From sequence record KC710998: a stretch of 51,821 nucleotides of DNA; one strand, 5' to 3'. The position numbers and the translations under genes are program-made. The notes under the pieces were generated by a model. That model was given only the letters and a program-made list of their open reading frames with translations, had not been told where the DNA came from and did not search any database. The stretch comes from Shigella phage pSf-1. Below, piece after piece: positions 6,912 through 27,210 of this stretch. Each line of letters begins with the position of its first letter. The stretch's first letter is position 1.

Positions 6912-8027
6912 ATGAAGCAAATCAAAATCACAGATGAACAATTTATCAATGAGCGCAAGCAGGGAAAGACATATAAGCAAATCGCTAATGAGTATGGTAT
7001 GAACGTTCGCAGCATTGAGCGACGCGCGGCACGATTAGCAAAGCAAGGTAAAGTTACAACCATAGGATCACCTGGTTTTGGTGTTACTGGAGAATCAAAG
7101 CTAATTGATAAAGATGGCAATGTGGTTATGACATGGATTAAGACAAGTAAGGACCGCGAACAGTTAGAAGCATTAATGCAGGCCGCTATGGATGCATTTA
7201 GCGAAGAAGTTCCTCGACTTGATCCACAGCCAGAATCACAAAAGGATTATAGCGAGACGTTATCACTGTATCCGATCTTTGACATGCACTTGGGCGCAAT
7301 GGCGCATAAGCATGAATGCGGCGAGAATTGGGATACAGCAACAGCAGAGCGCGCAATGAATAATTTCATTGATTATTCCATCCAGTGCGCGCCGGATAGT
7401 GAAAAAGCTGTTTTGCTGATTGGTGGTGATATGCTTCACAGCGACGGACTGGAAGCGGTGACACCTGCAAGCGGTCACGTATTAGATCAAGATAGTCGAT
7501 ACGCAAAACTTGTTTATGTTGCCATCCGGTCAGTGCGTCGAGCAATCACAAAGCTGTTATCAAAACACAAAAACGTCGAGATTCAGATTATTGAAGGAAA
7601 CCACGACCAAAGCGGCATGATCTGGTTGCGCGCAGCAATGGCGGCAGCATATGAGAATGAGCCACGAGTGCATGTTGATGTATCTCCGCGAGTAGTTCAT
7701 CACACACAGTATGGCAAAACATTCCTGGCATATCATCACGGGCACACTATACGCAAGCCTGAAACATTACTAATGATGTGCGCGGCAGACTGGCGCGAAG
7801 ACTTCGGAAATTCAAAAATGATGTATGCTCACGTAGGGCACTGGCATCATCAGACAGTAACTGAAACAAGCCTGGGCATTGTTGAAGTGCATAGCACTAT
7901 GGCGGCAAAAGATGCATATGCTGCGCGCGGTGGATGGCGTTCTCGTCGCCGCGCGGCTGTTATTGTTTACGATAAAGAATACGGAGAAGTGGGGCGATTT
8001 ATGCATTATCCAGAAATGGCTGATTGA
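6912..8027 (+). CDS. calcineurin-like metallophosphoesterase with N-terminal HTH domain
   Basis: phosphoesterase motifs DMHLG, GGDMLHSD, EGNHD, HGH, GHWHH; N-terminal HTH-like segment; AAGGAG RBS. Confidence 0.65.
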   Translation: MKQIKITDEQFINERKQGKTYKQIANEYGMNVRSIERRAARLAKQGKVTTIGSPGFGVTGESKLIDKDGNVVMTWIKTSKDREQLEALMQAAMDAFSEEVPRLDPQPESQKDYSETLSLYPIFDMHLGAMAHKHECGENWDTATAERAMNNFIDYSIQCAPDSEKAVLLIGGDMLHSDGLEAVTPASGHVLDQDSRYAKLVYVAIRSVRRAITKLLSKHKNVEIQIIEGNHDQSGMIWLRAAMAAAYENEPRVHVDVSPRVVHHTQYGKTFLAYHHGHTIRKPETLLMMCAADWREDFGNSKMMYAHVGHWHHQTVTETSLGIVEVHSTMAAKDAYAARGGWRSRRRAAVIVYDKEYGEVGRFMHYPEMAD

Positions 8028-8070
8028 ACTTTTAATCATTAAAATATAAATATAAATCATCAATTTAATT

Positions 8071-8101
8071 GGGCGTGGCATTTTGCTTCGCCCTTTTTTT
8101 A
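8071..8101 (+). terminator. rho-independent terminator
   Basis: imperfect GC hairpin (GGGCGTGGCA...TGCTTCGCCC) followed by T7. Confidence 0.5.
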
Positions 8102-8173
8102 TTCCTTTTTGTGAGTTCAATGGTTAGGATACAAACAATTAATTGTTGACTTTTATCTACAGGAGATCTAATC

Positions 8174-8389
8174 ATGAAAGATTTTTTAAACGCCGCAACT
8201 TCCGGTACTGGCGGCGCGTCAATCACTGGCGCGGTAACTGGTCAAACAACTATCGCAATAGCCAGCTTAGTTTTGATGGCTGCATTTGGTATGTGGGGCG
8301 CTTATCTTCGTTGGCGTGATAGCAAGGCGCTACGTGACGCTCTTGAATGCGGTGATATTAAGAAAGCTATTGAGATCAGAGGTAAATAA
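8174..8389 (+). CDS. holin (small, pinholin-like)
   Basis: 71 aa, hydrophobic core, charged C-terminus, directly upstream of and overlapping endolysin start. Confidence 0.55.
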
Positions 8390-8877
8390 TGAGTATAAAA
8401 CAAAGAGTGACCGCTGCGGCTTTTGGCGTTGCTCTTGCCCTTACTTCTCCGCTACTGGAGGAAATAGAAGGAGTAAAATATAAGCCGTACAAAGATATTG
8501 CTGGGATATGGACGGTTTGCGCCGGAATAACTGGACCTGACGTAATACAAGGCAAAACGTACACACAAAGAGAGTGTGATGCACTACTGGCAAAGCATAT
8601 CAAGATCGCAAAGGATGAAGTTGATAAGAGTGTAAAGGTTGACATTCCTGATACAATGCGCGCAGCAATGTATTCATTCACATACAATGCTGGAACTGGA
8701 GCTTTTAGAAATTCAACCATGCTTAAGCTGATTAATAGAGGTCGTTACATGGAAGCGTGTAATCAGTTATGGCGATGGACCAAGTACACCAATCCAAAAA
8801 CTGGAAAGAAAGAAACGTCTAAAGGACTGCGCAACCGCCGCGCGGTGGAATTTAAATATTGCATTAAGGATCTGTAA
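8389..8877 (+). CDS. SAR endolysin (T4-lysozyme-like muramidase)
   Basis: N-terminal weakly hydrophobic Ala/Gly-rich signal-anchor-release segment; catalytic E-x8-D-x5-T triad ([16 protein letters not shown]). Confidence 0.7.
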
Positions 8878-8879
8878 TT

Positions 8880-9296
8880 ATGCGAAAGTTATCACTAATC
8901 GCGATCGCTGTTATTTTGTCTGGATGTTCAAGCGTTACGCCACTGACCGGATTAATCGGTAGTAAGCCGGAAATCACCGCGCAGGCAGGAGCGGAGAACG
9001 TAAAGCAGACCGTAGGCCTGACAGCAAAACAGGACGCAAGCAACAAGCAGGATACAACCATTAAAGATTCGAAAGTTGACACGGTTGATACTTCCAGCAA
9101 AAAGGAGATCAAAACGTCAACCATTCAGGCAAACACCATCAAGGCTGATAAAATCCAGGTTGTGCAGGGTGAGCAAAGGAAGTGGTACGATCCTATAATC
9201 TATTGCGCTGCAATTTTCAGTGGTCTTTTGACTATGCTTTACTTTTCCTACCGCAAAGACAACAAAAAGGAGCTTAACGCCTCCTTTGTTTTATAG
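8880..9296 (+). CDS. unimolecular spanin (lipoprotein with C-terminal TMD)
   Basis: N-terminal lipobox LSGC and C-terminal transmembrane helix; position after endolysin. Confidence 0.6.
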   Translation: MRKLSLIAIAVILSGCSSVTPLTGLIGSKPEITAQAGAENVKQTVGLTAKQDASNKQDTTIKDSKVDTVDTSSKKEIKTSTIQANTIKADKIQVVQGEQRKWYDPIIYCAAIFSGLLTMLYFSYRKDNKKELNASFVL

Positions 9297-9512
9297 TGAA
9301 TCCATCAAATCTTGAAAGCTGTTTCCGCTATAATCATTCTCGACAAGAATGTAAGCACCTTTCTTCTTTATATCCCATAACATTTCATTGTATTCGTAAC
9401 GATTTATTTCAAACGTGCTGCCATCTTCTCTTGTCGCAGTTCCTTTGTCGTTGAAAACATCAAAAGTTACATTGATGATTTTTGTCTCTTTCTTTGTTAC
9501 TTTGATAGCCAT
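9291..9512 (-). CDS. hypothetical protein
   Basis: ATG with AGGA RBS downstream of minus-strand promoter cassette; track ORF 9291..9578. Confidence 0.4.
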   Translation of the reverse strand: MAIKVTKKETKIINVTFDVFNDKGTATREDGSTFEINRYEYNEMLWDIKKKGAYILVENDYSGNSFQDLMDSL

Positions 9513-9543
9513 TTTTAAAATCCTCATATTCGTTTCGATGAAA

Positions 9544-9588
9544 CAAATATACCGATACGAGATCGGGAGTTTTAACAAAAAGTGCTAT
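9544..9588 (-). promoter_or_regulatory. conserved promoter cassette (minus strand)
   Basis: reverse-complement motif GTTTTAACAAAAAGTGCTAT, 17 nt spacer with CCGAT/ATCGG inverted repeat, TATATT, CATCGAAACGAA leader. Confidence 0.55.
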
Positions 9589-9705
9589 TCAATACGCTTT
9601 ACAGTAACCAACAAAACGCCGTCCTCATCACACAAATTATGCTCTGATATATCAAACGCTCGCATGTCAGAATGAATGAGCGTTAACATTGCGTGCATGA
9701 AGTCG

Positions 9706-10113
9706 TCATGTGAGATTGAACTTACGGCGCAGAACTTCAATATTTTGTCTATTAGCATTTGACGTAAACAATTCTTCATCGCTCATTTCTCCGATCCTTA
9801 AAACATCCCTTACCCATTCGTTTTGCATACCTTCCAGACTGTAAAGTTCAAACGAGAAAGGTCGATTTGCAGACCCTTTCTTACACCAGAACTTTCCACC
9901 AACTCCATCAAGATAACCAGCGGTCATCATTCTTGCGCAAAACTCTTTTGAAACGGCGGTTGCAAACATTCTCGGCGTAAATCCTGCGGCCCTTGCGAGC
10001 CGCTCACATTCTCTATGCTGAAATATAAATTTTGCGATATGTTGACGTGTAAACCATTCGAATGACTCACACCAGCGATACAGATCCAAGATAAACAAAA
10101 TGTTACCTCCCAT
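9706..10113 (-). CDS. hypothetical protein
   Basis: ORF track; downstream of HNH gene in same operon. Confidence 0.35.
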   Translation of the reverse strand: MGGNILFILDLYRWCESFEWFTRQHIAKFIFQHRECERLARAAGFTPRMFATAVSKEFCARMMTAGYLDGVGGKFWCKKGSANRPFSFELYSLEGMQNEWVRDVLRIGEMSDEELFTSNANRQNIEVLRRKFNLT

Positions 10114-10615
10114 GATTGCAGTGATATTTTAGTTCGTTTTCTTTTGATCTTCTTGCGCAAGCCGCATCAAATATAGTTTTAAAATATCCAATACAAAATG
10201 TTTTTCCTAAAACTCCTATTTGTGCATAATACAGTCCATCTTTAGTTATTGTAACCCCAGTTAATCCAGTTTTGTTTCTTTTGTTTTTTGATAAGTTTTT
10301 TTGATTATCTTTCTTTCTAACAAGTCTTAGATTTTCTATCCTGTTGTCGTCGCGAATGTGGTTAATGTGATCAATCTCATATCCTTCTAGTATAGCGCCG
10401 TTATGCATTTCCCATATTATCCGATGCGCCAAAAATCTCCTTTTATTTATGTTTAATAATATATAACCAGATTCTAAATCCTTACATCCTGCAATCTTAC
10501 CAGAATATTGAGTGTTACATTTGCTCATTATTCTTTCGCATGAGAAGTGGCTTAATGGCCTGGTGCGCCATATAAGCGCACCATTTGAATATGTAAAATA
10601 ATCATGCCAATTCAT
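10103..10615 (-). CDS. HNH homing endonuclease with AP2-like DNA-binding domain
   Basis: HNH motif EIDHINHIRDDNRIENLRLV...N; AP2-like segment GVTITKDGLYYAQIGVLGKTFCIGYF; GGGGTAA RBS. Confidence 0.65.
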   Translation of the reverse strand: MNWHDYFTYSNGALIWRTRPLSHFSCERIMSKCNTQYSGKIAGCKDLESGYILLNINKRRFLAHRIIWEMHNGAILEGYEIDHINHIRDDNRIENLRLVRKKDNQKNLSKNKRNKTGLTGVTITKDGLYYAQIGVLGKTFCIGYFKTIFDAACARRSKENELKYHCNHGR

Positions 10616-10619
10616 AAAA

Positions 10620-12203
10620 TTACCCCAGCAATGTTGGATTTACGAAAACAACGCCATTAATCACGCAAATATAGTTTCTTTCCTCAAGCATCGGAAGCAG
10701 TTGCGTTTCCATTCGCTTCATTACTCCAGCCTGACCAACAAACGGCTTAACTTTTCGTGCTGCCTCATATATAGCGCGAACATTCAATATCCCCTTATTA
10801 GCCTTGCCGTGTCGAGTAATGATCTCGATTAGTTTACCCATTTCAGCATCATCACCAGCGTAGCCAGAAGCGTTGGCGGCGCTAATGTATGTTTTGCTCA
10901 ACTCGCTAAACATCAGTAGTGCTTCCTGAACGGTTTCAACCTCAATCTCTTTCGACTTTTGAGGGTATCCGCCAGGGTTAAACCAATTGCGGATAGTGTG
11001 CAAAACCGAAGCAATCCTGATCACCTGCTTATCCATTTTTCCAAGCGCACCGCGCAGCATTGTATGCGAATACTTTCCGCCATCGGCAAGGTGCGGTTCC
11101 ATTTCCTGACGAGCCATGTTAAGAACTCGCATTGCTGATTTGCTGATCTTAAGCTGGATGTTTGATTCACTCATGATGTTATGGATCAGCTTAAAATATT
11201 GACTTTTCAGTTCTCCATCAACAGGCTCATAAGTCGAATCACCGTTATCATCAACAAACTTTCGACGACCTAAAAATGATTCCTCACGCACAAGCAAATA
11301 ACGCTCACTTACACCGATACCGCGCGATCCTGCATCCATGATGGCATTGATTGTTTCATCCTGGGCAATTACCGCCATACAGCCAAGAGCTTTAAAACTC
11401 ATATTGTTGTCAGCGTTTGCACGAGCTATAGAAACATGACCGTGATCCCATGCTTTTAATACAAGTTCGCTGTTGGTTTTACGTTCACTATTGGCATATG
11501 TCAGACCTAAAAGGCTGTTAATACTCGTTGCCTCGTCTGAAATTACAGCAAAGTTACCCTGGCGATTATTGATTCTTGCAAGTCCTTCCGGCGTGGTGTC
11601 GGACACAGGGAAAACTATGTCACACATCTTTTCCAGTTTTTCTTCCAGATCTTCTTTCTCCTGGTACAGAGATTCCATATCAGCGCCGGAGCGCTCGCTT
11701 TTCATCTCTTTTGCAAGACCTGCCAACTTTGCCTGAATCTTTTTTCTTTCCTTCTTTCGCTGATCGTTAATTCTTTCCACTTCTGCAACCATTGGAGCAA
11801 GTGCCAAGCTGTTAACGGCAGATTTACCAGTTGATGGAGGCTGGCTTGTAACAACGTACAGAGCGGTTGGTTGATCCGTTCCGTGATACTCAACAGTGAA
11901 GCGTCCAAGCATTGCAGCAGACACGCATCCGATAAAATGCATATATGCCGATGATTCAGGGAACTGAACTGATCGAGCAATGTTGCGCGCCAACTTGCCA
12001 ACAATATCAACATCATTGCCAAGAGAAATTACAGGGTAGCGATCGTTTCCGTTATTAACATCATTAACCTCACCCCAAAAGCTGGACGATTGACGGTATC
12101 CGTTTGCCTGAATGGACACGCGCACCGGAGACAATCCTTGTGCATCAGCTAATTCGATAATTTGTTTTGGTGTTAGTTTGTTGGTTTCAAACGAAAAATT
12201 CAT
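10620..12203 (-). CDS. DUF3987-like P-loop ATPase (putative replicative primase-helicase-associated protein)
   Basis: Walker A-like PPSTGKS, Walker B-like AVISDEAT; start at MNFSFETNK (ATG 12203, AAAGGAG RBS) downstream of promoter cassette. Confidence 0.5.
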   Translation of the reverse strand: MNFSFETNKLTPKQIIELADAQGLSPVRVSIQANGYRQSSSFWGEVNDVNNGNDRYPVISLGNDVDIVGKLARNIARSVQFPESSAYMHFIGCVSAAMLGRFTVEYHGTDQPTALYVVTSQPPSTGKSAVNSLALAPMVAEVERINDQRKKERKKIQAKLAGLAKEMKSERSGADMESLYQEKEDLEEKLEKMCDIVFPVSDTTPEGLARINNRQGNFAVISDEATSINSLLGLTYANSERKTNSELVLKAWDHGHVSIARANADNNMSFKALGCMAVIAQDETINAIMDAGSRGIGVSERYLLVREESFLGRRKFVDDNGDSTYEPVDGELKSQYFKLIHNIMSESNIQLKISKSAMRVLNMARQEMEPHLADGGKYSHTMLRGALGKMDKQVIRIASVLHTIRNWFNPGGYPQKSKEIEVETVQEALLMFSELSKTYISAANASGYAGDDAEMGKLIEIITRHGKANKGILNVRAIYEAARKVKPFVGQAGVMKRMETQLLPMLEERNYICVINGVVFVNPTLLG

Positions 12204-12230
12204 TGGTGATAACTCCTTTTTGATGCGGCA

Positions 12231-12274
12231 ATAATACCGCACCAATGCTACCCGCATTTAACAAAAAATGCTAT
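12231..12274 (-). promoter_or_regulatory. conserved promoter cassette (minus strand, variant ATAGCATTTTTTGTTAAATG)
   Basis: motif + 19 nt spacer + TATTAT upstream of DUF3987 gene. Confidence 0.5.
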
Positions 12275-12487
12275 TTGATCCGCTCTATGCTAACTAAGAT
12301 TTTTTCTGGTTCCTTTGCACTATGGCAATGCGCGGTTACAGAATCAACAAAATCAAAGTAAAGTGATTTGTGATATGAGAATCCAATCAGCCACCCAACC
12401 ATCGTTTTCTTTATTGGCCTGACTATATCGCATGATTGAAGGTTTTTGTTGCTGAATGAGTCACCTTATAGCGATATTCAGCCTTGA

Positions 12488-12874
12488 TCACTTATACATA
12501 GCCTCAAACAAATGACAGCCACCAGCGGAAAATCCAACTTCTTCGCGGTACAGCGTCCAGCGGTCGCCAGCTTCATCAAACACATAACCAGCAACAGCGC
12601 CAAGTGCTCGGCCTTGCTCAATCTGGTAGCGCTTTCCTTCTTTGAAATGCTTTTTACAAGGGATCTTGTGATCTACAAAGGTGCATTTAATTGTTTTTGT
12701 CTTGATATGACGATAGTCAGACTCAACAGCGTTTTGCCACTTGCTACCCTTTGTAATGCTCTTTACCTGGAATTGTTCCAACTCGATCACATCATCGCTA
12801 CCAGCGATTTTTTCGTATACAACTTTATAACGACCGTTCATCAAAACGTTGGTTTTATTGCAGATAACTTTCAT
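12488..12874 (-). CDS. hypothetical protein
   Basis: ORF track; AAGGAG RBS; downstream of promoter cassette. Confidence 0.45.
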   Translation of the reverse strand: MKVICNKTNVLMNGRYKVVYEKIAGSDDVIELEQFQVKSITKGSKWQNAVESDYRHIKTKTIKCTFVDHKIPCKKHFKEGKRYQIEQGRALGAVAGYVFDEAGDRWTLYREEVGFSAGGCHLFEAMYK

Positions 12875-12904
12875 CGTTTATTTCTCCTTTCGTTTCGGTG
12901 AAGT

Positions 12905-12949
12905 GATTATGCCAGGTTTTGCACCTGGCGTTTTAACAAAAAGTGCTAT
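12905..12949 (-). promoter_or_regulatory. conserved promoter cassette (minus strand)
   Basis: 44-nt core identical to the plus-strand cassette at 17701..17744 (includes hairpin GCCAGGTGCAAAACCTGGC). Confidence 0.55.
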
Positions 12950-13655
12950 TTTGCGTTTGCTTCAAAGACGGCGCGAGCAAAACCGCGCGGTGTGAGGGAG
13001 CGGATCATCTTTGTGCGAGATGATTTTCCGCCAGTTTTGGCCCAACCAGGATTATCCTTGTCATCCTCTTTAGGAAGGATTGTTGCGCGCGGAGGAATAA
13101 CAAATCCGTTTCCAGTCCAAAGGCATGTTTTCTTAAAGTACCGATCCCGCGCCGGAATAATATCAGGGAAGTCGGGATGCTTATCATCTTCCGGCAGATA
13201 GCAGCATAATCGCACGGATGGAACGTATAATCAGGCTTACGCCATAACGTTGACAGCTTGCCTACAGGATTTTCGATCATGTAAGGAACGCCGAAATAAT
13301 CAGCGATATGCGCCGCGATTCTGCAAGTGTCGGCGGCCTCATCCTGGAACGCTGGATTCTCAAGGCGTTTTTTGGTCCAATGGCGAGATCCGCTATTTGC
13401 AAGGTCAGTGCACGGCGGAAATGCCATAATGAAATCAGGCTTGCCCCAATTTTCAAGTTTTGCGGTATATTTGAATAGCTCATCAATCCACACATTAACG
13501 TAAAAAATATTATCATGGATTATGCGCACTGATTGGTAGTCGCCATGATCTGCATCATCGTAATTAAAGCAAATGCATTTATATCCAGCATCAGCCCAAT
13601 CTTTAACGGCTTTACCAGATCCATCAAACAAAGAGAATATTAAACCTTTATACAT
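12946..13655 (-). CDS. C5-cytosine DNA methyltransferase-like protein, apparently frameshifted
   Basis: motif I LFDGSG, motif IV FPPCTDLANSG (PC dipeptide), motif VI ENPVG; coding continues in another frame (track ORFs 13005..13655 and 12946..13215). Confidence 0.45.
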
Positions 13656-13888
13656 TTCATCACCTCAAAACGGAAAGCATCTGGGCAGTTCGGATCAAAA
13701 TTGCAACCACAATCATTAACAATCATAGTTGGATCTGCAAATGCAGCGCCGCATTCATGGTCCATATCCATTTCACCCAACGCATCATCAAGCGTCCTGA
13801 TTTTATATGCGACTTCAAGCGCGGCCTCTTTATTCAGTCCGGCATCTTCTGCTTTTTGCAGTCGCTCAAAAAAACCGTCTTGACTCAT
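13640..13888 (-). CDS. hypothetical Cys-rich protein
   Basis: ORF track; Cys-containing CGCNFDPNCPD segment; overlaps start of methyltransferase-like gene. Confidence 0.4.
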   Translation of the reverse strand: MSQDGFFERLQKAEDAGLNKEAALEVAYKIRTLDDALGEMDMDHECGAAFADPTMIVNDCGCNFDPNCPDAFRFEVMKCIKV

Positions 13889-13998
13889 TTAATAAACTCC
13901 TTAACAACAGCAAGAATAATCACAAGCCCAGCAGTAAAAACAAGCAAACCGACAAGGCCAATCATAACACTAAATAAAACATCAAGCGTCTTAATCAT
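13885..13998 (-). CDS. small hydrophobic peptide (about 37 aa)
   Basis: ATG..TGA minus-strand ORF MIKTLDVLFSVMIGLVGLLVFTAGLVIILAVVKEFIK, single predicted TM helix; stop overlaps next start (ATGA). Confidence 0.3.
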   Translation of the reverse strand: MIKTLDVLFSVMIGLVGLLVFTAGLVIILAVVKEFIK

Positions 13999-14010
13999 TT
14001 ATTCACCATT

Positions 14011-14036
14011 GATAAAATGGGAGGCGGAAACCTCCC
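14011..14036 (-). terminator. putative terminator (minus strand)
   Basis: perfect GGGAGG/CCTCCC hairpin followed on minus strand by ATTTTATC. Confidence 0.4.
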
Positions 14037-14045
14037 ATTGGTTAA

Positions 14046-14273
14046 TCATACAGCCTTCCAGCTTTCAATAAACATGCTGTTTTCTTCCAGCAGTTTAATC
14101 AATTCTTCGCGCGTGTATTTGCGGATTTTACTACCTGGATGTGAGCCAACAACAAACACACCTTTACCACTCGTGATTGTTAACTGGTTGATTCCGCAAG
14201 ATTTATCCATCTTAATTGCGACGCGGTGATGTGCATCAACAGTGTTCATGATGTTAGTAACTTTAGCTTTCAT
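14046..14273 (-). CDS. hypothetical protein
   Basis: start at MKAKVTNIM with GAGGAT RBS; track ORF 14046..14336. Confidence 0.45.
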   Translation of the reverse strand: MKAKVTNIMNTVDAHHRVAIKMDKSCGINQLTITSGKGVFVVGSHPGSKIRKYTREELIKLLEENSMFIESWKAV

Positions 14274-14303
14274 TATGCAATCCTCATTATATTTGGTGTG
14301 ATA

Positions 14304-14346
14304 ACTATACCAGGTTTGAGAAATATTGTTTAGCAATTCGTGCTAT
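14304..14346 (-). promoter_or_regulatory. conserved promoter cassette (minus strand, variant ATAGCACGAATTGCTAAAC + TATAGT)
   Basis: same variant upstream half as cassettes at 19381 and 21896. Confidence 0.5.
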
Positions 14347-14447
14347 CAGTTGAAATAGCTATGGCGCTTTGCTCGCTTGCCTTCTCCGCCATAATGATCA
14401 TTTGCAACAGCTACCATCCAGGAATTATGGAATATTATTAGCTTCAT

Positions 14448-14729
14448 CTAATTAATGCCAACAACGTTAAAACTTACAGCTTTTGTTGCGCTAAATACAT
14501 ACGCTTCAACAGCATCACCAAATACACGAATTTTTCCATAGCCGTACTGCGCATTCATATTGCGCCAAACCGTCCTGTTAGAACAGAACGCGTTACCAGT
14601 CTTGATAAGATTATCCATCTCTTTTCTTAGGTCATGATAATCAAGCCAGAATCTATAGGCGCGTTGTTTAATGAGTTTCGCCTTGATTGCTTCGGCTGAG
14701 TTTTTAAAATCGCTGTTTTTGTATGCCAT
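14448..14729 (-). CDS. hypothetical protein
   Basis: ORF track; start overlaps stop of upstream gene (translational coupling). Confidence 0.45.
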   Translation of the reverse strand: MAYKNSDFKNSAEAIKAKLIKQRAYRFWLDYHDLRKEMDNLIKTGNAFCSNRTVWRNMNAQYGYGKIRVFGDAVEAYVFSATKAVSFNVVGIN

Positions 14730-14923
14730 TACACAACCTCCATAATAGTATTGAATCCACGCAGTTTGAAAGAGTTTCCATGTTTAACAACGTTCCATGT
14801 CAGGCCGGAGTGATACGCAACCATATCCTCAAGATCAATTGTGATGATAGCGCCTTTCTTAAAGATTCCTTTCTCGTGAGTGGTGTCACGCTGTACAACT
14901 TTAACATCAACTTGATTTTCCAT
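14729..14923 (-). CDS. hypothetical protein
   Basis: ORF track; GGA RBS in conserved leader. Confidence 0.45.
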   Translation of the reverse strand: MENQVDVKVVQRDTTHEKGIFKKGAIITIDLEDMVAYHSGLTWNVVKHGNSFKLRGFNTIMEVV

Positions 14924-14954
14924 TTTTAAATCCTCGTTCGTTGTCGATGCGCTT

Positions 14955-14998
14955 AATATACCAATCAGAGGCGCATCGGTTTTAACAAAAAGTGCTAT
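14955..14998 (-). promoter_or_regulatory. conserved promoter cassette (minus strand)
   Basis: motif + spacer, TATATT enclosed by 8-bp inverted repeat CGATGCGC/GCGCATCG. Confidence 0.55.
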
Positions 14999-15285
14999 TC
15001 AACAACAGATCCAGTTAAAGAGATAAGTGCTCTTGTGATCTTGTGTCTGCGATACTGACGCGCAACAACCGGAAGATTTTCACCGCTTTGATGACCGAAG
15101 CAGATCGGCAACTCACCCTCAAGAGAGCGGAAGCCGCCAAATTCAAGATCCCGCACTGGATTTGAGCGCCACGCTTCAATAAATCCGCGTTCGTCACGCG
15201 TGATATAGCGGTATATGTTAGGGAGGGGCAATTGTATCCCCTCAAAATCCACGGTATCGGTATAGCTGTAAAACTTAGAACTCAT
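14995..15285 (-). CDS. hypothetical protein
   Basis: start at MSSKFYSY overlapping stop of upstream small gene; track ORF 14995..15402. Confidence 0.4.
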   Translation of the reverse strand: MSSKFYSYTDTVDFEGIQLPLPNIYRYITRDERGFIEAWRSNPVRDLEFGGFRSLEGELPICFGHQSGENLPVVARQYRRHKITRALISLTGSVVE

Positions 15286-15427
15286 AATCAACAACTCCAA
15301 ACTCGTTGACGATTTGCGCCTTATAGAAGCCGCCATTTTTCGCAAGGTTGTAGCATGCCGCCACAGTTTCAAATTCGCGCACTTCCGGCTGGCTGTTTTC
15401 ATGTTCCCAGGTAATCAGAGTAACCAT
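15275..15427 (-). CDS. hypothetical small protein (50 aa)
   Basis: ATG after conserved leader CATCGACAACGAAAGCGAGGA; MVTLITWEHENSQPEVREFETVAACYNLAKNGGFYKAQIVNEFGVVDYEF. Confidence 0.4.
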   Translation of the reverse strand: MVTLITWEHENSQPEVREFETVAACYNLAKNGGFYKAQIVNEFGVVDYEF

Positions 15428-15460
15428 TTTCAAATCCTCGCTTTCGTTGTCGATGTGTGT

Positions 15461-15504
15461 AATGTACAGGAATACGAGGATTGAGTTTTAACAAAAAGTG
15501 CTAT
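15461..15504 (-). promoter_or_regulatory. conserved promoter cassette (minus strand)
   Basis: motif + 18 nt + TACATT + CATCGACAACGA leader. Confidence 0.55.
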
Positions 15505-15771
15505 TTAGTCCAGGAGTTCGATTTCGCGCTCGCCAGTTAACGGATCTTTGATCCAGAATCCGAGCGCCTCACCGTAAATACCGCCATAGAATCCAAGCGC
15601 CGACAGATCCTCACCTTTAACAAATACCAGATCCCCGCTACGGCTTACGTGAGATACGTTAACGATAACCGGAAAGGTGCGATCCTTAAATGCAGGCCGC
15701 ATGGCGTAACACCCGTTATTGAGCAAACGTGCTTTGCGCTTAACTGGAATAGGTGCATTGATTCGCGCCAT
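15505..15771 (-). CDS. hypothetical protein
   Basis: track ORF 15505..15810, start moved to MARINAPIP. Confidence 0.4.
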   Translation of the reverse strand: MARINAPIPVKRKARLLNNGCYAMRPAFKDRTFPVIVNVSHVSRSGDLVFVKGEDLSALGFYGGIYGEALGFWIKDPLTGEREIELLD

Positions 15772-15784
15772 CTTTATTTCTCCT

Positions 15785-16030
15785 TCATTGTTGATCGTGT
15801 TTAACGGCAATCAGAACACCACAGGACTCGTTAATGAATTTTGCCATTCGCTTATCATCACCAGCAGGGATTAGCGCATTACACTCGCGTTTGCTACTGA
15901 ATACCGTCACTTTATGGAATGATGCGAACGGCATCGACGGGAACTCTACTGTTTGCGTCAAGATCCGCAATCCCATCTTTTTGGCCCTTACCTGGGCCTC
16001 AGCGAGTTCAAAATCCACTTCATTAATCAT
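15785..16030 (-). CDS. hypothetical protein
   Basis: ORF track. Confidence 0.4.
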   Translation of the reverse strand: MINEVDFELAEAQVRAKKMGLRILTQTVEFPSMPFASFHKVTVFSSKRECNALIPAGDDKRMAKFINESCGVLIAVKHDQQ

Positions 16031-16299
16031 TTCTTGATCTCCTCGGCAATAAACTTCAGGACTTTGCGCAAAAACACTTCATTATTGATGGTCGCTGGCA
16101 ATTCCTCTTTCACTTCTTGCGGCAGGTAAACGTTGCCATGCCAGGTTAAGCAATCGTAGTTGATACGATAAGAGCAAAGCCACTCGCAATCGTTATCCGC
16201 TTCCCAAATGCAGAGTTGCAGAACATCGCCAAAATTCTCAACAGTCAGGTCCAGACCGTGACGCTTTGCAAAGTTGAAAGTGGTTTTGCTGATGTTCAT
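16027..16299 (-). CDS. hypothetical protein
   Basis: start MNISKTTF after conserved leader; track ORF 16027..16371. Confidence 0.45.
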   Translation of the reverse strand: MNISKTTFNFAKRHGLDLTVENFGDVLQLCIWEADNDCEWLCSYRINYDCLTWHGNVYLPQEVKEELPATINNEVFLRKVLKFIAEEIKK

Positions 16300-16337
16300 T
16301 TGCTTTCTCCTGATGGGTATCTCGTTTCGATGCGTGT

Positions 16338-16381
16338 AATGTACCCGATCAGGATGATTCAGTTTTAACAAAAAGTGCTAT
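16338..16381 (-). promoter_or_regulatory. conserved promoter cassette (minus strand)
   Basis: motif + 18 nt + TACATT + CATCGAAACGAG leader. Confidence 0.55.
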
Positions 16382-16974
16382 TTCTCAACTGGCGATTATT
16401 CCAACTATTCCATTAATCAGGAATAACAAGAATAACTCATTCGCGATCACCTGGATTGTGAGACTTTGAGTTTGGTCAATTTTAATCAAGTGATTAACTT
16501 TTTGTGTGGAGGGGATAGAGAAACGCGGCCCTCTTGCGTCCTTTCCGGCAATCCTGGCGCGCGCAATTGTTATCTTCTGTTATCGCTGTTATGCGTGTTA
16601 TTCCGGCGTGGAATCGCATAACAAAAAATAACAAGAAAAATCCATATAACATACTAAAAAATAAGGATTATTTATTTATATGTATCTATAAATTATTATC
16701 TGTTATGTGTGTTATGTGGGCGTATTGATACCAGATGTATTTTGGTGATTGTATGTGGTTGTGTGTTGGCTTGTATGTATATATGGGGTGGGGCGTATCC
16801 GCGCATTTTTAGATAACACGCAAAAACAACATTGATTTATAAGGAAAAGAACATGAATTTTGTTTCGTTCTTGAAACACAACATTGAAAAACTGCCAATA
16901 ACAATTAAAAACAGTTGACACGCCAGGAATGGTAAATGATAATGCAGCCACTGAATCACGAGGGGGGATAAAGC
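16382..16974. repeat. noncoding AT-rich island with TGTTAT/ATAACA iterons and TG-rich repeats (candidate origin or regulatory hub)
   Basis: four direct TGTTAT copies at 9-10 bp phasing (16568-16601), three ATAACA copies (16618-16651), TGTTATG x2 (16701-16715), GTGATTGT/TGTATGT repeats; no ORF of 60 aa or more. Confidence 0.6.
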
Positions 16975-17292
16975 ATGAGTGAGTCTGTGTTTACAAATGA
17001 GCTTCGCAAGGTTGCAATTGCTCTAGCCACTGGAGTACATGAATCTATCCAGATACCTGAAAGATGGGTAAGGCAGCACCTGGAGGGCAAGAAGTCAGCC
17101 AGCAACGCCGGATCATATCTGCGTCAGATTATGGGGCGCGTTCCAGAAGTGGCGGAGAAGGGGCGAGTTTCAGTATCAAAGAAACCTTACGGCCCTGATA
17201 GCGAATACTTCGGCGAAAATTACTTTGATGTGTCGATTGTTAATGCGCCGAATCGCAGGGTTTACAACAAGGCCGCGCTTGAGAAGCTGTAG
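16975..17292 (+). CDS. hypothetical protein (first gene of plus-strand early cluster)
   Basis: ATG with GAGGGGGGA RBS; a second frame stays open past the stop (possible indel). Confidence 0.45.
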   Translation: MSESVFTNELRKVAIALATGVHESIQIPERWVRQHLEGKKSASNAGSYLRQIMGRVPEVAEKGRVSVSKKPYGPDSEYFGENYFDVSIVNAPNRRVYNKAALEKL

Positions 17293-17445
17293 CGAAAGCA
17301 AAGCGCCAGGTTGCTGAGTCAATGCTTAAAGTCTCACCAAGCCTAGCGAACTACTCGCCAGATGAATATGAAACACTTGCTAAGGCGATCGCAGATTTTC
17401 ACGCGATCATTAAAGAAACATACCTTAACGATGAGGAACAATAAA

Positions 17446-17694
17446 ATGAGCAAACTTACGCTTGATGAACTGATGGAAAAAATTGATGAAGTGGGCTTTA
17501 ACAAGCTGGTTGATTTCCACTTGACCGCATGTGAAATCACCGCGCAGGAGTTTAGCGACATGCTATCTGATGCGAGCGAGATTTACACAAGCCTATGCGA
17601 AAGAGAAATCAAAGTCATTGAAATTGAGATGCCTGGAGATCCGGTATTCGCAAGGCTTGTGGCTGCATTCGATGAGGAGAATGTTGGACTCTGA
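17446..17694 (+). CDS. hypothetical protein
   Basis: ATG 17446 with GAGGAA RBS; track ORF 17362..17694. Confidence 0.45.
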   Translation: MSKLTLDELMEKIDEVGFNKLVDFHLTACEITAQEFSDMLSDASEIYTSLCEREIKVIEIEMPGDPVFARLVAAFDEENVGL

Positions 17695-17700
17695 CCGGAA

Positions 17701-17745
17701 ATAGCACTTTTTGTTAAAACGCCAGGTGCAAAACCTGGCATAATA
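17701..17745 (+). promoter_or_regulatory. conserved promoter cassette
   Basis: ATAGCACTTTTTGTTAAAAC + GCCAGGTGCAAAACCTGGC hairpin + ATAATA + CATCGAAACGAG leader. Confidence 0.55.
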
Positions 17746-17776
17746 ACCTCATCGAAACGAGATTGAGGAAAACAAA

Positions 17777-17962
17777 ATGGCACGTCGCATCACCAAAGAC
17801 CTTAAAGTCCTGAACAAAGAAAACGTAGTTAAAATCCTGGTTATCTGGGGATACAACGAAGAAACAGCAAAGCAGAAGGTAGAGGCAGGTTATGACATGG
17901 CTGTAAAAGCAATGCCAAACGACGACGCCAAAGGTATTGCAAACTATGTAGCTTTCTTTTAA
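17777..17962 (+). CDS. hypothetical protein
   Basis: ORF track; GAGGAA RBS. Confidence 0.45.
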   Translation: MARRITKDLKVLNKENVVKILVIWGYNEETAKQKVEAGYDMAVKAMPNDDAKGIANYVAFF

Positions 17963-17977
17963 TTAGCAGGTGAGTAA

Positions 17978-18163
17978 ATGAAAACGAAATTAGTCCATAA
18001 ATCAGAAATCAAGATCGGCGATACTGTGATTCACAACGGTGAGCTTAGAACGGTTGGCAAAGAGTCAATAAGCCACGATGAATTTATGGGGATCTTGTTG
18101 TTCGGTGACTCTTATCGTCTTGGTTACAAGATGGTTGAGCTTGTGGAAGAGGTAAAATTCTAA
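17978..18163 (+). CDS. hypothetical protein
   Basis: ORF track; AGGTGAG RBS. Confidence 0.45.
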   Translation: MKTKLVHKSEIKIGDTVIHNGELRTVGKESISHDEFMGILLFGDSYRLGYKMVELVEEVKF

Positions 18164-18208
18164 ATAGCACTTTTTGTTAAAACTCGAAAACGATAACCAG
18201 GCATAATA
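18164..18208 (+). promoter_or_regulatory. conserved promoter cassette
   Basis: motif + 19 nt + ATAATA. Confidence 0.55.
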
Positions 18209-18261
18209 AATCACATAGGGCGGCACGGCGTCGCCCAAAAAACCAATCAGGAGAAAGCACC

Positions 18262-19155
18262 ATGTTAAAACTTGCTGACATTAAATTCCCGATCACTTTC
18301 GAATCTCGTGGCGTTGGTCATTACATTTTTACCGATGAGAAAACATGCCATAACGTTTGGTTGCACAGCGATAAGCCAAGCCCATCAACAATGGAGATTC
18401 AGCACTTCATTGATGCGCATAATCAGCACTACAACTCAATCCGTGACTACGGCTACGCAATGCCAGGCTACACATGCTTGCACTACAAGCCATATAAGGG
18501 CCAGGTGTTACCAGTGCGCTCACCGGAACGCGCAGAGATTCCGATGGTCAATATGAAAACCTGCGACTACAAAAAGCTGTGGTGCTTAAGTCTGGAAAAT
18601 ATCAAGTATCCGATCACGTTCCACACGACTGGTAAGTCAACGATTCGCTACACATCGCGCGACAATGGCGTTTATAGCGATGGTACGAAATCAGAGTTGA
18701 AAGTTGATTTCTTTGTCAATGGTCACAACAAATTCAATCCGCACAACGAAGAGGATAAAGTGTATTACGTGGAAGACATTACAAAACACTTGTTTGGAGA
18801 AACTCCATTCGGCGGCGGGAAGACGGCAATTCAGAAAATCATTGGCGAGGAGATCCATAAAGCGGCTGTCGAAATGAAAGCGCCTGGAGGCTGGCGTATT
18901 GACAAGAGCGCCTTTGCCTATCAAGAAATCGTAACGCAGGGCGCGATTGAAGATATGCCAGTTAAAGCCACGCTAAAAGGAGTCCGGCTTGATGACGGCA
19001 GTTGGTATGAATTAACGGCTACACCAAAGACGATCGAAATTCATGATGATGTTGTTATCCTTCTGCTTCACTACGGCGGCACTAAAAACCGGACTGTTGC
19101 AGGTGAGATCAGCATCAAGCGCGGAACGATGGTTAAGTGGAAGGTGAAGATTTGA
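18262..19155 (+). CDS. hypothetical protein with internal tandem duplication
   Basis: two similar segments (ADIKFPITFESRGVGHY... and ENIKYPITFHTTGKSTI...); AGGAGA RBS. Confidence 0.5.
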   Translation: MLKLADIKFPITFESRGVGHYIFTDEKTCHNVWLHSDKPSPSTMEIQHFIDAHNQHYNSIRDYGYAMPGYTCLHYKPYKGQVLPVRSPERAEIPMVNMKTCDYKKLWCLSLENIKYPITFHTTGKSTIRYTSRDNGVYSDGTKSELKVDFFVNGHNKFNPHNEEDKVYYVEDITKHLFGETPFGGGKTAIQKIIGEEIHKAAVEMKAPGGWRIDKSAFAYQEIVTQGAIEDMPVKATLKGVRLDDGSWYELTATPKTIEIHDDVVILLLHYGGTKNRTVAGEISIKRGTMVKWKVKI

Positions 19156-19231
19156 GTTTGTTCACTGCGGCGCACGTCGCCGCATGGATCGGATTGTTTG
19201 CCTACCTGTTTAGCTTTTATTGAGGTGAGAG

Positions 19232-19384
19232 ATGGCTACCTGGATTTTGCTGATTCTTATGATTGATGGCGGCGTTGACCATATCGAAATGAATAGCCAG
19301 CAATCTTGCATTGAGGCACGAGAGCAGATCAAGAACAACAACAGGTTTTATGCGTACACTCACACGCTATGTATTAAGAAATAG
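19232..19384 (+). CDS. small membrane protein (50 aa)
   Basis: MATWILLILMIDGG... hydrophobic N-terminus; GAGGTGAGAG RBS; stop TAG lies in next promoter motif. Confidence 0.35.
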   Translation: MATWILLILMIDGGVDHIEMNSQQSCIEAREQIKNNNRFYAYTHTLCIKK

Positions 19385-19423
19385 CACGAATTGTTAAAAC
19401 TCAAATGTGGGGCCAGGTATAAT
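19381..19423 (+). promoter_or_regulatory. conserved promoter cassette (variant ATAGCACGAATTGTTAAAAC + TATAAT)
   Basis: TATAAT lies in loop of GGCC...GGCC inverted repeat. Confidence 0.55.
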
Positions 19424-19453
19424 GGCCTCACTTTCAACGAAGGGGATAAAACG

Positions 19454-19684
19454 ATGTACGTTAACAAGAAGATGAAATGCGTTTCCGTTGGCTATGGTTT
19501 CACTGGCATGTTCAAGCCTGGCGAAATCTATATGGCGCAAAAGTTGAAATCATCAACCGGATCTTTTTACGTCAGCAACAGCAAAGGGCATCGCATGTTC
19601 CTGAACGGTGGTGAAGGCACTAAGGTTATGGCGCACGCTATGGTGATTGCTGAATTTGAGGAAGTGAAAGATGGAAACAAATAA
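19454..19684 (+). CDS. hypothetical protein
   Basis: ATG 19454 with AAGGGGA RBS; track ORF 19391..19684. Confidence 0.45.
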   Translation: MYVNKKMKCVSVGYGFTGMFKPGEIYMAQKLKSSTGSFYVSNSKGHRMFLNGGEGTKVMAHAMVIAEFEEVKDGNK

Positions 19685-19892
19685 GCGCGTTAAGCACAAG
19701 TTTATTGATAATCATGGCGATGCACTTGAGGTATATAAGTTCGGCGATCGCGTGTTTATTGATGGCACGTTTGAAGGTGGGCGCAGGCCGGATTTTAGAT
19801 CGATACTCACCATTGACCAGGTGCGCAAGCTGGCGGATAAGTTAAATGATCTGGCAGATGAAATCGAATACAAGCAAATTCATTTTAATTGA
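19671..19892 (+). CDS. hypothetical protein
   Basis: ORF track; GAGGAAG RBS. Confidence 0.45.
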   Translation: METNKRVKHKFIDNHGDALEVYKFGDRVFIDGTFEGGRRPDFRSILTIDQVRKLADKLNDLADEIEYKQIHFN

Positions 19893-19903
19893 TAGGTTTG
19901 ATA

Positions 19904-20443
19904 ATGAAAAAATACGAATTTGAACTTTGGGGCAGCAAATACCATTTTTCCACTAGCAAGCCGATTGTTATCGTTGACCTGGACGGAACGTTATCAGACG
20001 GAACGCATCGCTTGCACCTGCTTCCGACAGAAGATTTGCACCTTACAGAAAGCTGGGCTGAGTTCAATAAGGCGGCTGTTGGCGATTCGCCGATTAAGAG
20101 CACTGTTGCAGTGGTTAACGGTTTGTGGATGTCAGGATTTGCCATCGTTATCCTGACTGGACGCAGCGATGAAGTTGCGATGGATACATGTAAATGGATT
20201 GGCGAGAATGGCATCAAATACGACGCGTTAATCATGCGCCGCAAGGAAGACAACCGCAAAGATACGATCATCAAAGAAGAAGTATTGCGAGCTATCGGAC
20301 TGGAAAACATTGTGTGCGCCTTTGATGATTCGCCTAACGTGGTTAAGCACTTCCGCAGCCTGGGAATCACAACCTATCAGGTCACGGAATACGACAAGCC
20401 ACATAATCATATCCAATCGCATGGCGTGGAGGAATTGAAATGA
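19904..20443 (+). CDS. HAD-superfamily phosphatase (polynucleotide 3'-phosphatase-like)
   Basis: HAD motif I IVDLDGTL (DxDGT); size about 180 aa. Confidence 0.55.
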   Translation: MKKYEFELWGSKYHFSTSKPIVIVDLDGTLSDGTHRLHLLPTEDLHLTESWAEFNKAAVGDSPIKSTVAVVNGLWMSGFAIVILTGRSDEVAMDTCKWIGENGIKYDALIMRRKEDNRKDTIIKEEVLRAIGLENIVCAFDDSPNVVKHFRSLGITTYQVTEYDKPHNHIQSHGVEELK

Positions 20444-20601
20444 CCTGGTTACTTTTAATCTTTGTCACAAGTTACAACTCCGCCGCTATTGAATCGCAAG
20501 AGTTCCACGGCGAATCAAGGTGTCAGGAAGCACGAAAACAAGTTGTTCTCCACATGTCAGATAGTGGGAAAGATGTAACAGCGCTATGCGTTCGTAAGTA
20601 G
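20440..20601 (+). CDS. small protein with N-terminal hydrophobic segment (53 aa)
   Basis: ATGA overlap with phosphatase stop; stop TAG lies in next promoter motif. Confidence 0.3.
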   Translation: MTWLLLIFVTSYNSAAIESQEFHGESRCQEARKQVVLHMSDSGKDVTALCVRK

Positions 20602-20641
20602 CACTTTTTGCAAAAATAGATTGTCGGGCTTGCGGTATAGT
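20598..20641 (+). promoter_or_regulatory. conserved promoter cassette (variant GTAGCACTTTTTGCAAAAAT + TATAGT)
   Basis: TATAGT in loop of GGGCTT/AAGCCC inverted repeat; CCATCGACAACAAACGAGGA leader. Confidence 0.5.
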
Positions 20642-20672
20642 AAGCCCATCGACAACAAACGAGGATTAAATC

Positions 20673-20783
20673 ATGGCTAACAAGATCGAGTTTTTTAAAG
20701 CGGTAGACAAGATTGATGCGCGCCAAGTTTCTTTGCTATCCAGTCAATTGACGGTGAGGATATGGCATACAACGTTATCATAG
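20673..20783 (+). CDS. hypothetical small protein (36 aa; may be fused with next ORF if an indel is present)
   Basis: ATG with GAGGA RBS after cassette. Confidence 0.3.
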   Translation: MANKIEFFKAVDKIDARQVSLLSSQLTVRIWHTTLS

Positions 20784-20932
20784 AAAAGAATCGCAGCGTA
20801 AACGAGCTTATCATGCTTGTGGTTAAGTTCGGGAAATGTGGGTGGCTTGATTCTGGAGTAGAGCCGCGCCGCCGCGACATGCAAGATCCAGTTCTGCTTT
20901 ACACGCTTGTAATTGAAGGAGGCAGCAAATGA
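20762..20932 (+). CDS. hypothetical small protein (56 aa)
   Basis: ATG with GGTGAGG RBS; below track cutoff. Confidence 0.3.
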   Translation: MAYNVIIEKNRSVNELIMLVVKFGKCGWLDSGVEPRRRDMQDPVLLYTLVIEGGSK

Positions 20933-21114
20933 TTTGGTTACTTGTATTTTTAGTTGTTTTCCTTTATATTTCAGGCTTATTCATCTTCCGCGCGCTGGTG
21001 AAAACATGCGATTGCACGGATAAAGATCAGCCTCTTGTTCTGATGTTCTGGTTTGTGTGGTTTTGGGTGGCGCTTTACCAGATTGTACGGGATAAAAGCG
21101 GATTCAAGTGGTGA
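20929..21114 (+). CDS. small integral membrane protein (two predicted TM helices)
   Basis: MIWLLVFLVVFLYISGLFIF...WFVWFWVALYQIV; ATGA coupling. Confidence 0.45.
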   Translation: MIWLLVFLVVFLYISGLFIFRALVKTCDCTDKDQPLVLMFWFVWFWVALYQIVRDKSGFKW

Positions 21115-21308
21115 TTCTTACTATAGCGCATTCACGCAGTGCGCTATGTTGAGATAACAACATGAGATCATGAAGATGCGAAACTTCGAAAAAATCGTAT
21201 CCAAAAAGAAGCGATACAGCTACCACGAGCACCAAGAGATGAATCAACGCTATCGCAATAAGCGCCAGCGCAAAGGTAAACATTCCAGTAAACATGGAGA
21301 AAATCAAT

Positions 21309-21899
21309 ATGAAACGCGACATTATCATTCTTAACGGGCCGCCAGGAGTTGGCAAAGATACGCTTGCGGCATACTTAACGGGCCATCGTTACGCAGCGGT
21401 TAAAGCGTCATTTAAACAGCCTATGTTCGATATTGCATTCTCCATGCTTGGCGTTTACCGATATGACGAGTTCATTGATCTGTATAACGACCGCGAGCAG
21501 AAAGAAAAGCCTCAAGCAATCTTGCAAGGTAAGTCGCCGCGACAATTCATGATCTGGATTAGTGAAGAAGTCATGAAGCCAGCTTTTGGCAAGCAATATT
21601 TCGGAAATCGCATGGTTGAGCAAGTACACGAGATGTACAGAGATTTGGCTGTTGTAATTAGTGATGGCGGATTCCCTGAAGAAATCAAGCCGCTCGTTAA
21701 GGCAGGCCATGAGGTGCACATTTGCCGACTGCATCGCGAAGGCTTCACGTTTGATGGCGATTCACGAAACTATATTGACCTGAGCGGATACCATCACCGA
21801 GTCAATCATTACGACTTCACAATGATTGATGGCGAGCCAGAAAAGACTGTTGAAGAGATCATCAAAACGGTGCAGTGGAAACACACAAAGATTGAATAG
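21309..21899 (+). CDS. P-loop nucleotide/polynucleotide kinase
   Basis: Walker A GPPGVGKDT near N-terminus; start ATG 21309 with GGAG RBS (track ORF from 21294). Confidence 0.55.
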   Translation: MKRDIIILNGPPGVGKDTLAAYLTGHRYAAVKASFKQPMFDIAFSMLGVYRYDEFIDLYNDREQKEKPQAILQGKSPRQFMIWISEEVMKPAFGKQYFGNRMVEQVHEMYRDLAVVISDGGFPEEIKPLVKAGHEVHICRLHREGFTFDGDSRNYIDLSGYHHRVNHYDFTMIDGEPEKTVEEIIKTVQWKHTKIE

Positions 21900-21939
21900 C
21901 ACGAATTGCTAAAAGCGGGGCGCAATGCCTCGCTATAAT
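21896..21939 (+). promoter_or_regulatory. conserved promoter cassette (variant ATAGCACGAATTGCTAAAAG + TATAAT)
   Basis: TAG of kinase stop codon inside motif. Confidence 0.55.
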
Positions 21940-27142: not shown

Positions 27143-27172
27143 CACGAATCGACAAACCAATATATAATCAAA

Positions 27173-27195
27173 GGCTGGAAAATCCAGCCTTTTTT
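27173..27195 (+). terminator. hairpin + T-run between terminase and portal genes
   Basis: GGCTGGA-aaa-TCCAGCC + T6; preceded by ATAGCACGAAT...TATAAT partial cassette. Confidence 0.4.
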
Positions 27196-27210
27196 ATTGG
27201 AGGAAAGATA

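Follow-up and report, generated by a model that had tools for sequence, protein, structure and literature searches.

Genomic Setting of the Three Genes

The analyzed stretch of DNA (the window) comprises 51,821 nucleotides of Shigella phage pSf-1 (KC710998) and represents the genome of a T1-like siphovirus of 51.8 kb, Hanrivervirus-like, from the subfamily Tempevirinae of the family Drexlerviridae. Three of its genes, all on the plus strand, are the subject of this work. They encode a helix-turn-helix (HTH)-fused metallophosphoesterase (MPE, 6912..8027), a stand-alone PNKP-type HAD phosphatase (HAD, 19904..20443), and a deoxynucleoside monophosphate (dNMP) kinase (DNK, 21309..21899). The three genes are probably dispersed parts of a conserved phage module, MPE-HAD-DNK, which would serve deoxynucleotide supply and not RNA repair.

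The gene content of the window is usual for the group and includes a primase, a helicase, VRR-NUC, Dam, a lysis cassette, HNH, a DUF3987 helicase, a Dcm-like methylase, a terminase-to-tail-fibre block, a Cor-type lipoprotein, exonuclease VIII, Erf, and SSB. Over positions 17000-24000, where the HAD and DNK genes lie, phages vojen, egaa, phiE31-2, and KarlJaspers share 92-94% identity with the window. No tRNA genes were detected in the 51.8 kb scanned. The MPE gene is located 12 kb away from HAD and DNK, and 865 bp of small open reading frames (ORFs) lie between the latter two. The rightward unit with the HAD and DNK genes is headed by a predicted sigma-70-like promoter on the plus strand (16915..16943; TTGACA-17-GATAAT, 11/12), a strong match obtained by a consensus scan only, which is also the sole support for counting these genes among the early regions of the genome.

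The dNMP Kinase

The P-loop kinase with the motif GPPGVGKDT, reported in a preliminary description of this DNA, was confirmed at 21309..21899. The protein of 196 amino acids was assigned to phrog_139 (E = 7e-51), as were T4 gp1 (1.8e-65), T5 Dnk (1.4e-51), and the DNK of phage Rao1 (5.7e-44), and all four cover approximately positions 79-266 of the profile. The reference sequence of T4 gp1 used here was 100% identical to record X03016. An hhalign comparison of the window kinase family with T4 gp1 yielded E = 3e-5; plain sequence and profile searches of the PDB with the window kinase failed to reach T4 gp1. The Walker A motif (residues 10-18, 21336..21362, plus strand) has Asp at the usual Ser/Thr position, and this GKD(T) variant also occurs in T4 gp1, T5 Dnk, and Rao1 DNK. 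The predicted structure adopts a fold of the NMP-kinase type with a helical NMP-binding insertion, and its best structural match is T4 gp1. The basic residues conserved in the family (K36, R62, K65, R78, R140, and R153) can likewise be read as NMP-kinase-like.

The features of a PNK-type 5'-kinase, a post-strand-2 Asp and a GK[ST] Walker A motif, were not found in this protein, in which Walker A reads GKDT. Polynucleotide kinases carry a catalytic Asp just after strand 2 (Asp35 in T4 Pnk). A conserved general-base Asp is absent from this place in the window kinase family, where the segment SFKxPMF has no conserved acidic residue. The Pfam domain AAA_33 was not matched by the window kinase, whereas T4 Pnk does match it.

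The window kinase is 97% identical to the DNK of phage KarlJaspers (QXV82329.1) and 47% identical to that of Rao1. The KarlJaspers enzyme, which behaves as a DNK in vivo, triggers the dITP-based Kongming defence, the reported trigger being phage nucleotide kinases or their enzymatic activity (bioRxiv 10.1101/2024.12.20.629578). In vitro, dAMP, dGMP, dCMP, and dTMP all serve as substrates of Rao1 DNK, and dATP falls when the enzyme is deleted (bioRxiv 10.1101/2024.12.20.629578). By analogy with these orthologues, through which the activity has been shown, the P-loop protein is a T4 gp1/T5 Dnk-type dNMP kinase that is predicted to convert 5'-dNMPs to deoxynucleoside diphosphates (dNDPs).

The preliminary description had proposed that the kinase and the phosphatase form a split polynucleotide kinase end-healing pair directed against anticodon nuclease. 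This proposal is not supported, since the kinase is a dNMP kinase, lacks the Asp after strand 2, and has orthologues that act on dNMPs. The identity now found for the kinase is the one that the description had itself named, for this half of the pair, as speaking against its idea, and the alternative it had offered, a role in nucleotide metabolism, is the better supported reading.

The PNKP-Type HAD Phosphatase

A HAD phosphatase with a DxDGT motif had been predicted at 19904..20443, and the motif was found there as DLDGT. The protein of 179 amino acids matched Pfam HAD_PNKP with E = 2.1e-21 and 77 bits (cut-off 27.6) and phrog_415 with E = 1.8e-65, and it contains no kinase domain. The ATG at 19904 was taken as the start codon; an alternative upstream TTG at 19889 is possible. 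The relatives with solved structures are solely the phosphatase domains of Pnkp1 (4xrp) and T4 Pnk (1ltq). Motif I (residues 25-29, 19976..19990, plus strand), with nucleophile Asp25 and Asp27, aligns with D165-V-D167-G-T of T4 Pnkp. Residues D25, D27, R36, T85/R87, D120, K124, D141, and D142 align with T4 Pnkp D165, D167, R176, S211/R213, D254, K258, D277, and D278, respectively, and are invariant in the family. These T4 Pnkp phosphatase residues are reportedly essential, as established by mutagenesis in the Shuman laboratory. The 120 listed HAD homologues vary in length from 167 to 264 amino acids, and none has a kinase domain; therefore, judging by domain content, the label "polynucleotide kinase", common in databases, is mistaken.

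T5 Dmp and VPG01 Dmp were also assigned to phrog_415, and they share with the window protein the motifs DLDGT, His-Arg at +10/+11, T-x-R, KDxxxK, and DD. The HAD could accordingly be a Dmp-like 5'-deoxynucleotidase serving as an antidote to DNK, which would trim the dAMP pool and thereby blunt the Kongming signal (dAMP to dITP), as T5 Dmp does. The cap-region length near that of Dmp is in line with such a role (the motif I-II spacing is 60 residues in HAD, 64 in T5 Dmp, and 46 in T4 Pnkp), as are the HAD gene preceding DNK in all 80 contigs described below and the reported co-occurrence of most Dmp homologues with DNKs (bioRxiv 10.1101/2024.12.20.629578). However, neither T5 Dmp nor VPG01 Dmp matched HAD_PNKP, for which the window HAD and four cassette orthologues scored 61-77 bits, and the HAD family profile gave 30 bits to T4 Pnkp and 8-10 bits to the two Dmps (8.5 bits to T5 Dmp). 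A dNMP phosphatase coupled to a dNMP kinase would, moreover, create a futile cycle. Phage Rao1 has the full cassette yet is strongly restricted by Kongming, its protection needs T5 Dmp in trans, and dAMP climbs during its infection (bioRxiv 10.1101/2024.12.20.629578). The anti-Kongming role of HAD is weakened by this behavior of a cassette-bearing phage, and we consider it unlikely.

Orthology of the HAD with T5 Dmp, an idea derived from their joint assignment to phrog_415, was demoted on the same profile scores and, further, on the observation that Rao1's own HAD gives no protection from Kongming. A paper on retron Eco2, which names Drexlerviridae and PNK in its methods and host-range sections only, was discarded as irrelevant evidence.

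At its stop codon, the HAD gene shares 4 nt (ATGA) with a 53-amino-acid ORF (20440..20601), which is annotated at the same position in KarlJaspers (bas06_0072) and phiE31-2 (gp055). Translation of this ORF is possibly coupled to that of the phosphatase.

The HTH-Fused Metallophosphoesterase

The gene at 6912..8027 encodes a protein of 371 amino acids, known in databases as "DNA repair exonuclease" or "phosphoesterase", which was assigned to phrog_704 (E = 7e-151) and is 100% identical to the MPE of phage damhaus. The metallophosphoesterase fold and all five motifs of such enzymes are present. The motifs span 7281..7847 on the plus strand, namely, DMH (residue 124, 7281), GDMLH (172, 7425), GNHD (229, 7596), HHGH (275, 7734), and GHWH (309, 7836), and their metal-ligand residues are invariant across 40 homologues. 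The N-terminal HTH, similar to sigma-70 region 4, occupies approximately residues 8-44 (6933..7043, plus strand) and was modelled as three helices (residues 8-16, 21-27, and 32-44). The HTH match is weak in the window protein (HTH_28, E = 0.0026); in a Webervirus orthologue, Sigma70_r4_2 scored 26.6 bits, which is above the cut-off. Thus, the HTH-fused metallophosphoesterase of the preliminary description stands, and the family matches of the three proteins are far stronger than chance would give. Structural neighbours of the protein include 3'-5' exonucleases, and on the modelled structure it is SbcD/Mre11/DP1-like. Among the profile matches that had been suggested as a check of the three enzymes, HAD_PNKP was obtained, but Pfam Metallophos remained below the threshold for the MPE (E = 0.074) and the kinase lacked AAA_33.

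Search for Ligases

The absence of a ligase, noted earlier, was supported by Pfam, tblastn, and the assignment of individual ORFs. No Pfam match to a ligase, RtcB, or Rnl was found in any ORF outside the structural block, and a tblastn search of the window with a phage DNA ligase returned nothing. All ORFs of at least 198 amino acids belong to non-ligase families, with the exception of three proteins without an assigned or examined function (18262..19155, 50018..50719, and 40414..41010). No Hen1-like methyltransferase was seen in the Pfam-scanned ORFs. These searches confirm, at the level of the predicted proteins, that no ligase is encoded in the window. The accompanying statement that KxDG occurs in no ORF was wrong: the called ORFs contain 10 copies of the motif and the six-frame translation contains 13, none of them in a ligase-like protein. 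The 10 ORF occurrences fall in the primase, structural proteins, and one small ORF, and are uninformative on ligases.

The MPE-HAD-DNK Cassette in Other Phages

In the T1-like phage Rao1, the three genes are adjacent (gp56-gp57-gp58) and located just before the holin gene; their products are 58%, 58%, and 47% identical to the window MPE, HAD, and DNK, respectively. The genes are also adjacent in Webervirus, with a HAD/DNK overlap of 4 nt, and in a Yersinia phage. In a Kagunavirus (Escherichia phage P AB-2017, locus L009, 2871..5037), they form a three-gene island whose products are 46-55% identical to the window proteins. This island lies on the strand opposite to the tail genes on either side, which suggests that MPE-HAD-DNK travels horizontally as a unit. 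The same slot holds a non-orthologous MPE (phrog_221) in LAh1, an Aeromonas podovirus of the Autographiviridae, and in Klebsiella phage Y10 (family unassigned in the record).

Linkage was further estimated in a sample of 80 IMG/VR contigs carrying HAD. In 80/80 contigs, DNK followed HAD on the same strand at a distance of up to 2.2 kb. Tight MPE-HAD-DNK cassettes with the 4-nt HAD/DNK overlap accounted for 29 contigs, 14 had adjacent HAD and DNK genes, and in 37 the two genes were spaced by 0.7-2.2 kb, as in the window. The contigs are mutually related, so that the value of 80/80 overstates their independence, and it is therefore the cross-family examples that carry the linkage argument. The order "PNK" and dNMP kinase after "DNA repair exonuclease" has been described for some Drexlerviridae in the KanT1 paper (2026), whose authors guess at a nucleotide-supply role (PMC13164509).

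The dispersed layout in the window, with the MPE gene 12 kb off and 865 bp of small ORFs between HAD and kinase, would be expected if the three were unrelated housekeeping genes residing in one genome by chance. Such a coincidence is very improbable: several unrelated lineages of phages carry the cassette in a tight form whose stop and start codons overlap, a non-orthologous MPE has been swapped into the same position, and HAD and DNK are linked in all 80 contigs. The grouping of the three enzymes made in the preliminary description is justified by the tight cassette found elsewhere.

The kinase gene has other neighbours in Chaseviridae (L005, 3250..4528; L006, 3250..4624), where DNK stands between an ATP-dependent DNA ligase gene, whose 3' end it overlaps, and a downstream dUTPase, a neighbour in keeping with nucleotide supply. 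No HAD or MPE was found at these loci; the kinase context differs there.

Proposed Role in Nucleotide Salvage

In infections by T1 and TLS, host chromosomal DNA is broken down and its nucleotides are recycled by enzymes that have remained unidentified (PMC11447400). The module may provide them by the following route. The PNKP-type HAD would strip 3'-phosphates off DNA ends, oligonucleotides, or nucleotides; the 3'-OH ends thus exposed would be digested to 5'-dNMPs by the SbcD/Mre11/DP1-like HTH-MPE; and DNK would capture the 5'-dNMPs and convert them to dNDPs, the conversion having been shown through orthologues, for host Ndk to complete the synthesis of dNTPs. No ligase is needed in this scheme because nothing is resealed. 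A futile cycle would result from translational coupling between a 5'-nucleotidase and a dNMP kinase, which favours a HAD substrate that does not overlap with those of the kinase.

Several observations weigh against deoxynucleotide supply. The roles given to HAD and MPE are putative. To our knowledge, no nuclease leaving 3'-phosphate ends acts in T1 infection, which makes the proposed HAD substrate hypothetical. The HAD could also be a small-molecule nucleotidase, given its motif I-II spacing, which at 60 residues falls between those of T4 Pnkp (46) and T5 Dmp (64), and its joint membership in phrog_415 with T5 Dmp. The best single structural match of the MPE is the generic phosphodiesterase MJ0936, and a Rad50/SbcC (SMC-like) partner was not found among the window ORFs. 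The MPE gene is distant from the other two in the window. Deletion of dnk in Rao1 had no measurable laboratory fitness cost (bioRxiv 10.1101/2024.12.20.629578). Finally, the kinase gene abuts a DNA ligase gene in Klebsiella phage HY (Molineuxvirinae), an Edwardsiella podovirus, and Chaseviridae, an arrangement that also fits DNA end processing; in the first two phages, the gene order is MPE-kinase-DNA ligase.

This last arrangement is one of the grounds for a broadened form of end healing, in which HAD would remove 3'-phosphates and MPE would open 2',3'-cyclic phosphates or trim the ends of DNA or RNA cut by defence nucleases. Sealing would then be left to host LigA (DNA) or RtcB (RNA), or to the adjacent DNA ligase in podoviruses, and the kinase would either supply 5'-phosphates or be a mere neighbour. 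The HAD is a true PNKP-type domain whose closest relatives of solved structure, Pnkp1 and T4 Pnkp, function in RNA repair, and bacterial Pnkp is made up of a kinase, a metallophosphoesterase, and a ligase. Because of this PNKP-like HAD and of the kinase abutting a DNA ligase in some podoviruses and in Chaseviridae, where the two genes overlap, end healing keeps some weight. Nevertheless, we regard it as improbable. By family the kinase is a dNMP kinase, its orthologues show this activity, and it lacks the PNK-type Asp; the MPE is Mre11-like; and the window has neither a ligase nor tRNA genes. A 3'-phosphatase would work against Escherichia coli RtcB, which directly joins ends bearing a 3'-phosphate or a cyclic phosphate. 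The Edwardsiella ligase is annotated as "PNKP adenylyltransferase and ligase domain protein", and it was considered as a part of a split bacterial Pnkp; this was rejected, since Pfam identified it as an ordinary ATP-dependent DNA ligase (DNA_ligase_A_M + OB).

A more specific version of the salvage reading, which we advance tentatively and hold to be somewhat less likely than its opposite, is that MPE-HAD(PNKP-type)-DNK constitutes a conserved and horizontally mobile pathway of three enzymes, in which breakdown products of DNA with 3'-phosphates are unblocked and digested to 5'-dNMPs, and the latter are phosphorylated to dNDPs. As a variant, the phosphatase may tune the dNMP pool and so limit the detection of DNK by Kongming. 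If the mobile pathway exists, the long-missing host-DNA recycling enzymes of T1-like phages would be identified, and the stand-alone PNKP phosphatase, from which RNA repair was expected, would instead serve nucleotide salvage.

The three genes are members of known families, and for the kinase there are experimental data on a near-identical orthologue; what is modestly new is confined to the conserved cassette and the substrates proposed for HAD and MPE. The analysis corrects a widespread mislabel, as the "polynucleotide kinase" of roughly 180 amino acids in T1-like phages has no kinase domain. Counter-defence by tRNA repair should not be credited to the window phage, and the kinase is the protein that exposes such phages to the Kongming defence. 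The occurrence of the cassette across unrelated phage families makes its three enzymes concrete candidates for those by which T1-like phages recycle host DNA.

Other Features of the Window

The gene 18262..19155, just upstream of the HAD region, encodes a protein of 297 amino acids assigned to phrog_7116 (function unassigned) and without a Pfam match. The profile was matched in two stretches, so the protein probably contains an internal duplication. One relative labels the counterpart of this gene "tail fiber protein", which seems unlikely from its position. A second protein without a Pfam match (50018..50719, minus strand; 233 amino acids) has a Gly-rich N-terminus, belongs to phrog_9288 (function unassigned), and adjoins the tail-fibre gene 50899..51711, whose product ends in an S74 chaperone-peptidase domain.

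The portal gene is seemingly present as two ORFs, 27211..27984 and 28074..28490, the first of which covers positions 19-279 of the 587 in the portal profile. Across 27150..28550, close relatives are 1 bp longer (1402 vs. 1401 bases), which points to the loss of one base from this essential gene or to an error of sequencing. The gene of the Dcm-like C5 cytosine methyltransferase (12946..13655, minus strand) also looks frameshifted: the ORF 13005..13655 matches only the N-terminal part of the methyltransferase profile, and the overlapping ORF 12946..13215 appears to be the true C-terminus. Relatives are 2 bp longer in the region 12900..13700. The DUF3987 helicase gene (10620..12257) is followed directly by an HNH_3 homing-type endonuclease gene (10103..10615, minus strand); in relatives, several HNH genes occur at varying positions.

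Comparison with Known Systems

The MPE was compared with Mre11, SbcD, PolD DP1, and MJ0936. It differs from them in the N-terminal HTH, which is missing from those enzymes, and in the lack of a Rad50/SbcC-type ATPase in the window.

The bacterial Pnkp/Hen1 system, in which Clostridium thermocellum Pnkp combines kinase, metallophosphoesterase, and ligase domains, resembles the phage genes in the genomic coupling of a P-loop kinase to an MPE and, in some podoviruses, in an adjoining ligase. In contrast, the phage kinase belongs to the dNMP-kinase family, the adjoining ligase is an ordinary ATP-dependent DNA ligase, and the Pfam-scanned ORFs gave no Hen1-like match.

The window HAD is similar to T4 Pnkp (PseT) and Capnocytophaga Pnkp1 in passing HAD_PNKP and in keeping the equivalent catalytic residues. 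Unlike them, it has no fused 5'-kinase, the neighbouring kinase comes from another family, no partner RNA ligase is present in the window phage, and the cap region is 14 residues longer than that of T4 Pnkp. With T5 Dmp, a 5'-deoxyribonucleotidase with anti-Kongming activity, the HAD shares phrog_415, the set of catalytic motifs, and the genomic association with DNK; Dmp differs in having no HAD_PNKP match, a score of 8.5 bits against the HAD profile, and a C-terminal extension (244 amino acids).

The closest parallel is provided by the kinases. Although the window kinase is shorter than T4 gp1 (196 vs. 241 amino acids) and 16% identical to it in the structural alignment, it has in common with the DNKs of T4 (gp1), T5, Rao1, and KarlJaspers the same span of phrog_139, the GKD(T) variant of Walker A, and the NMP-kinase fold.

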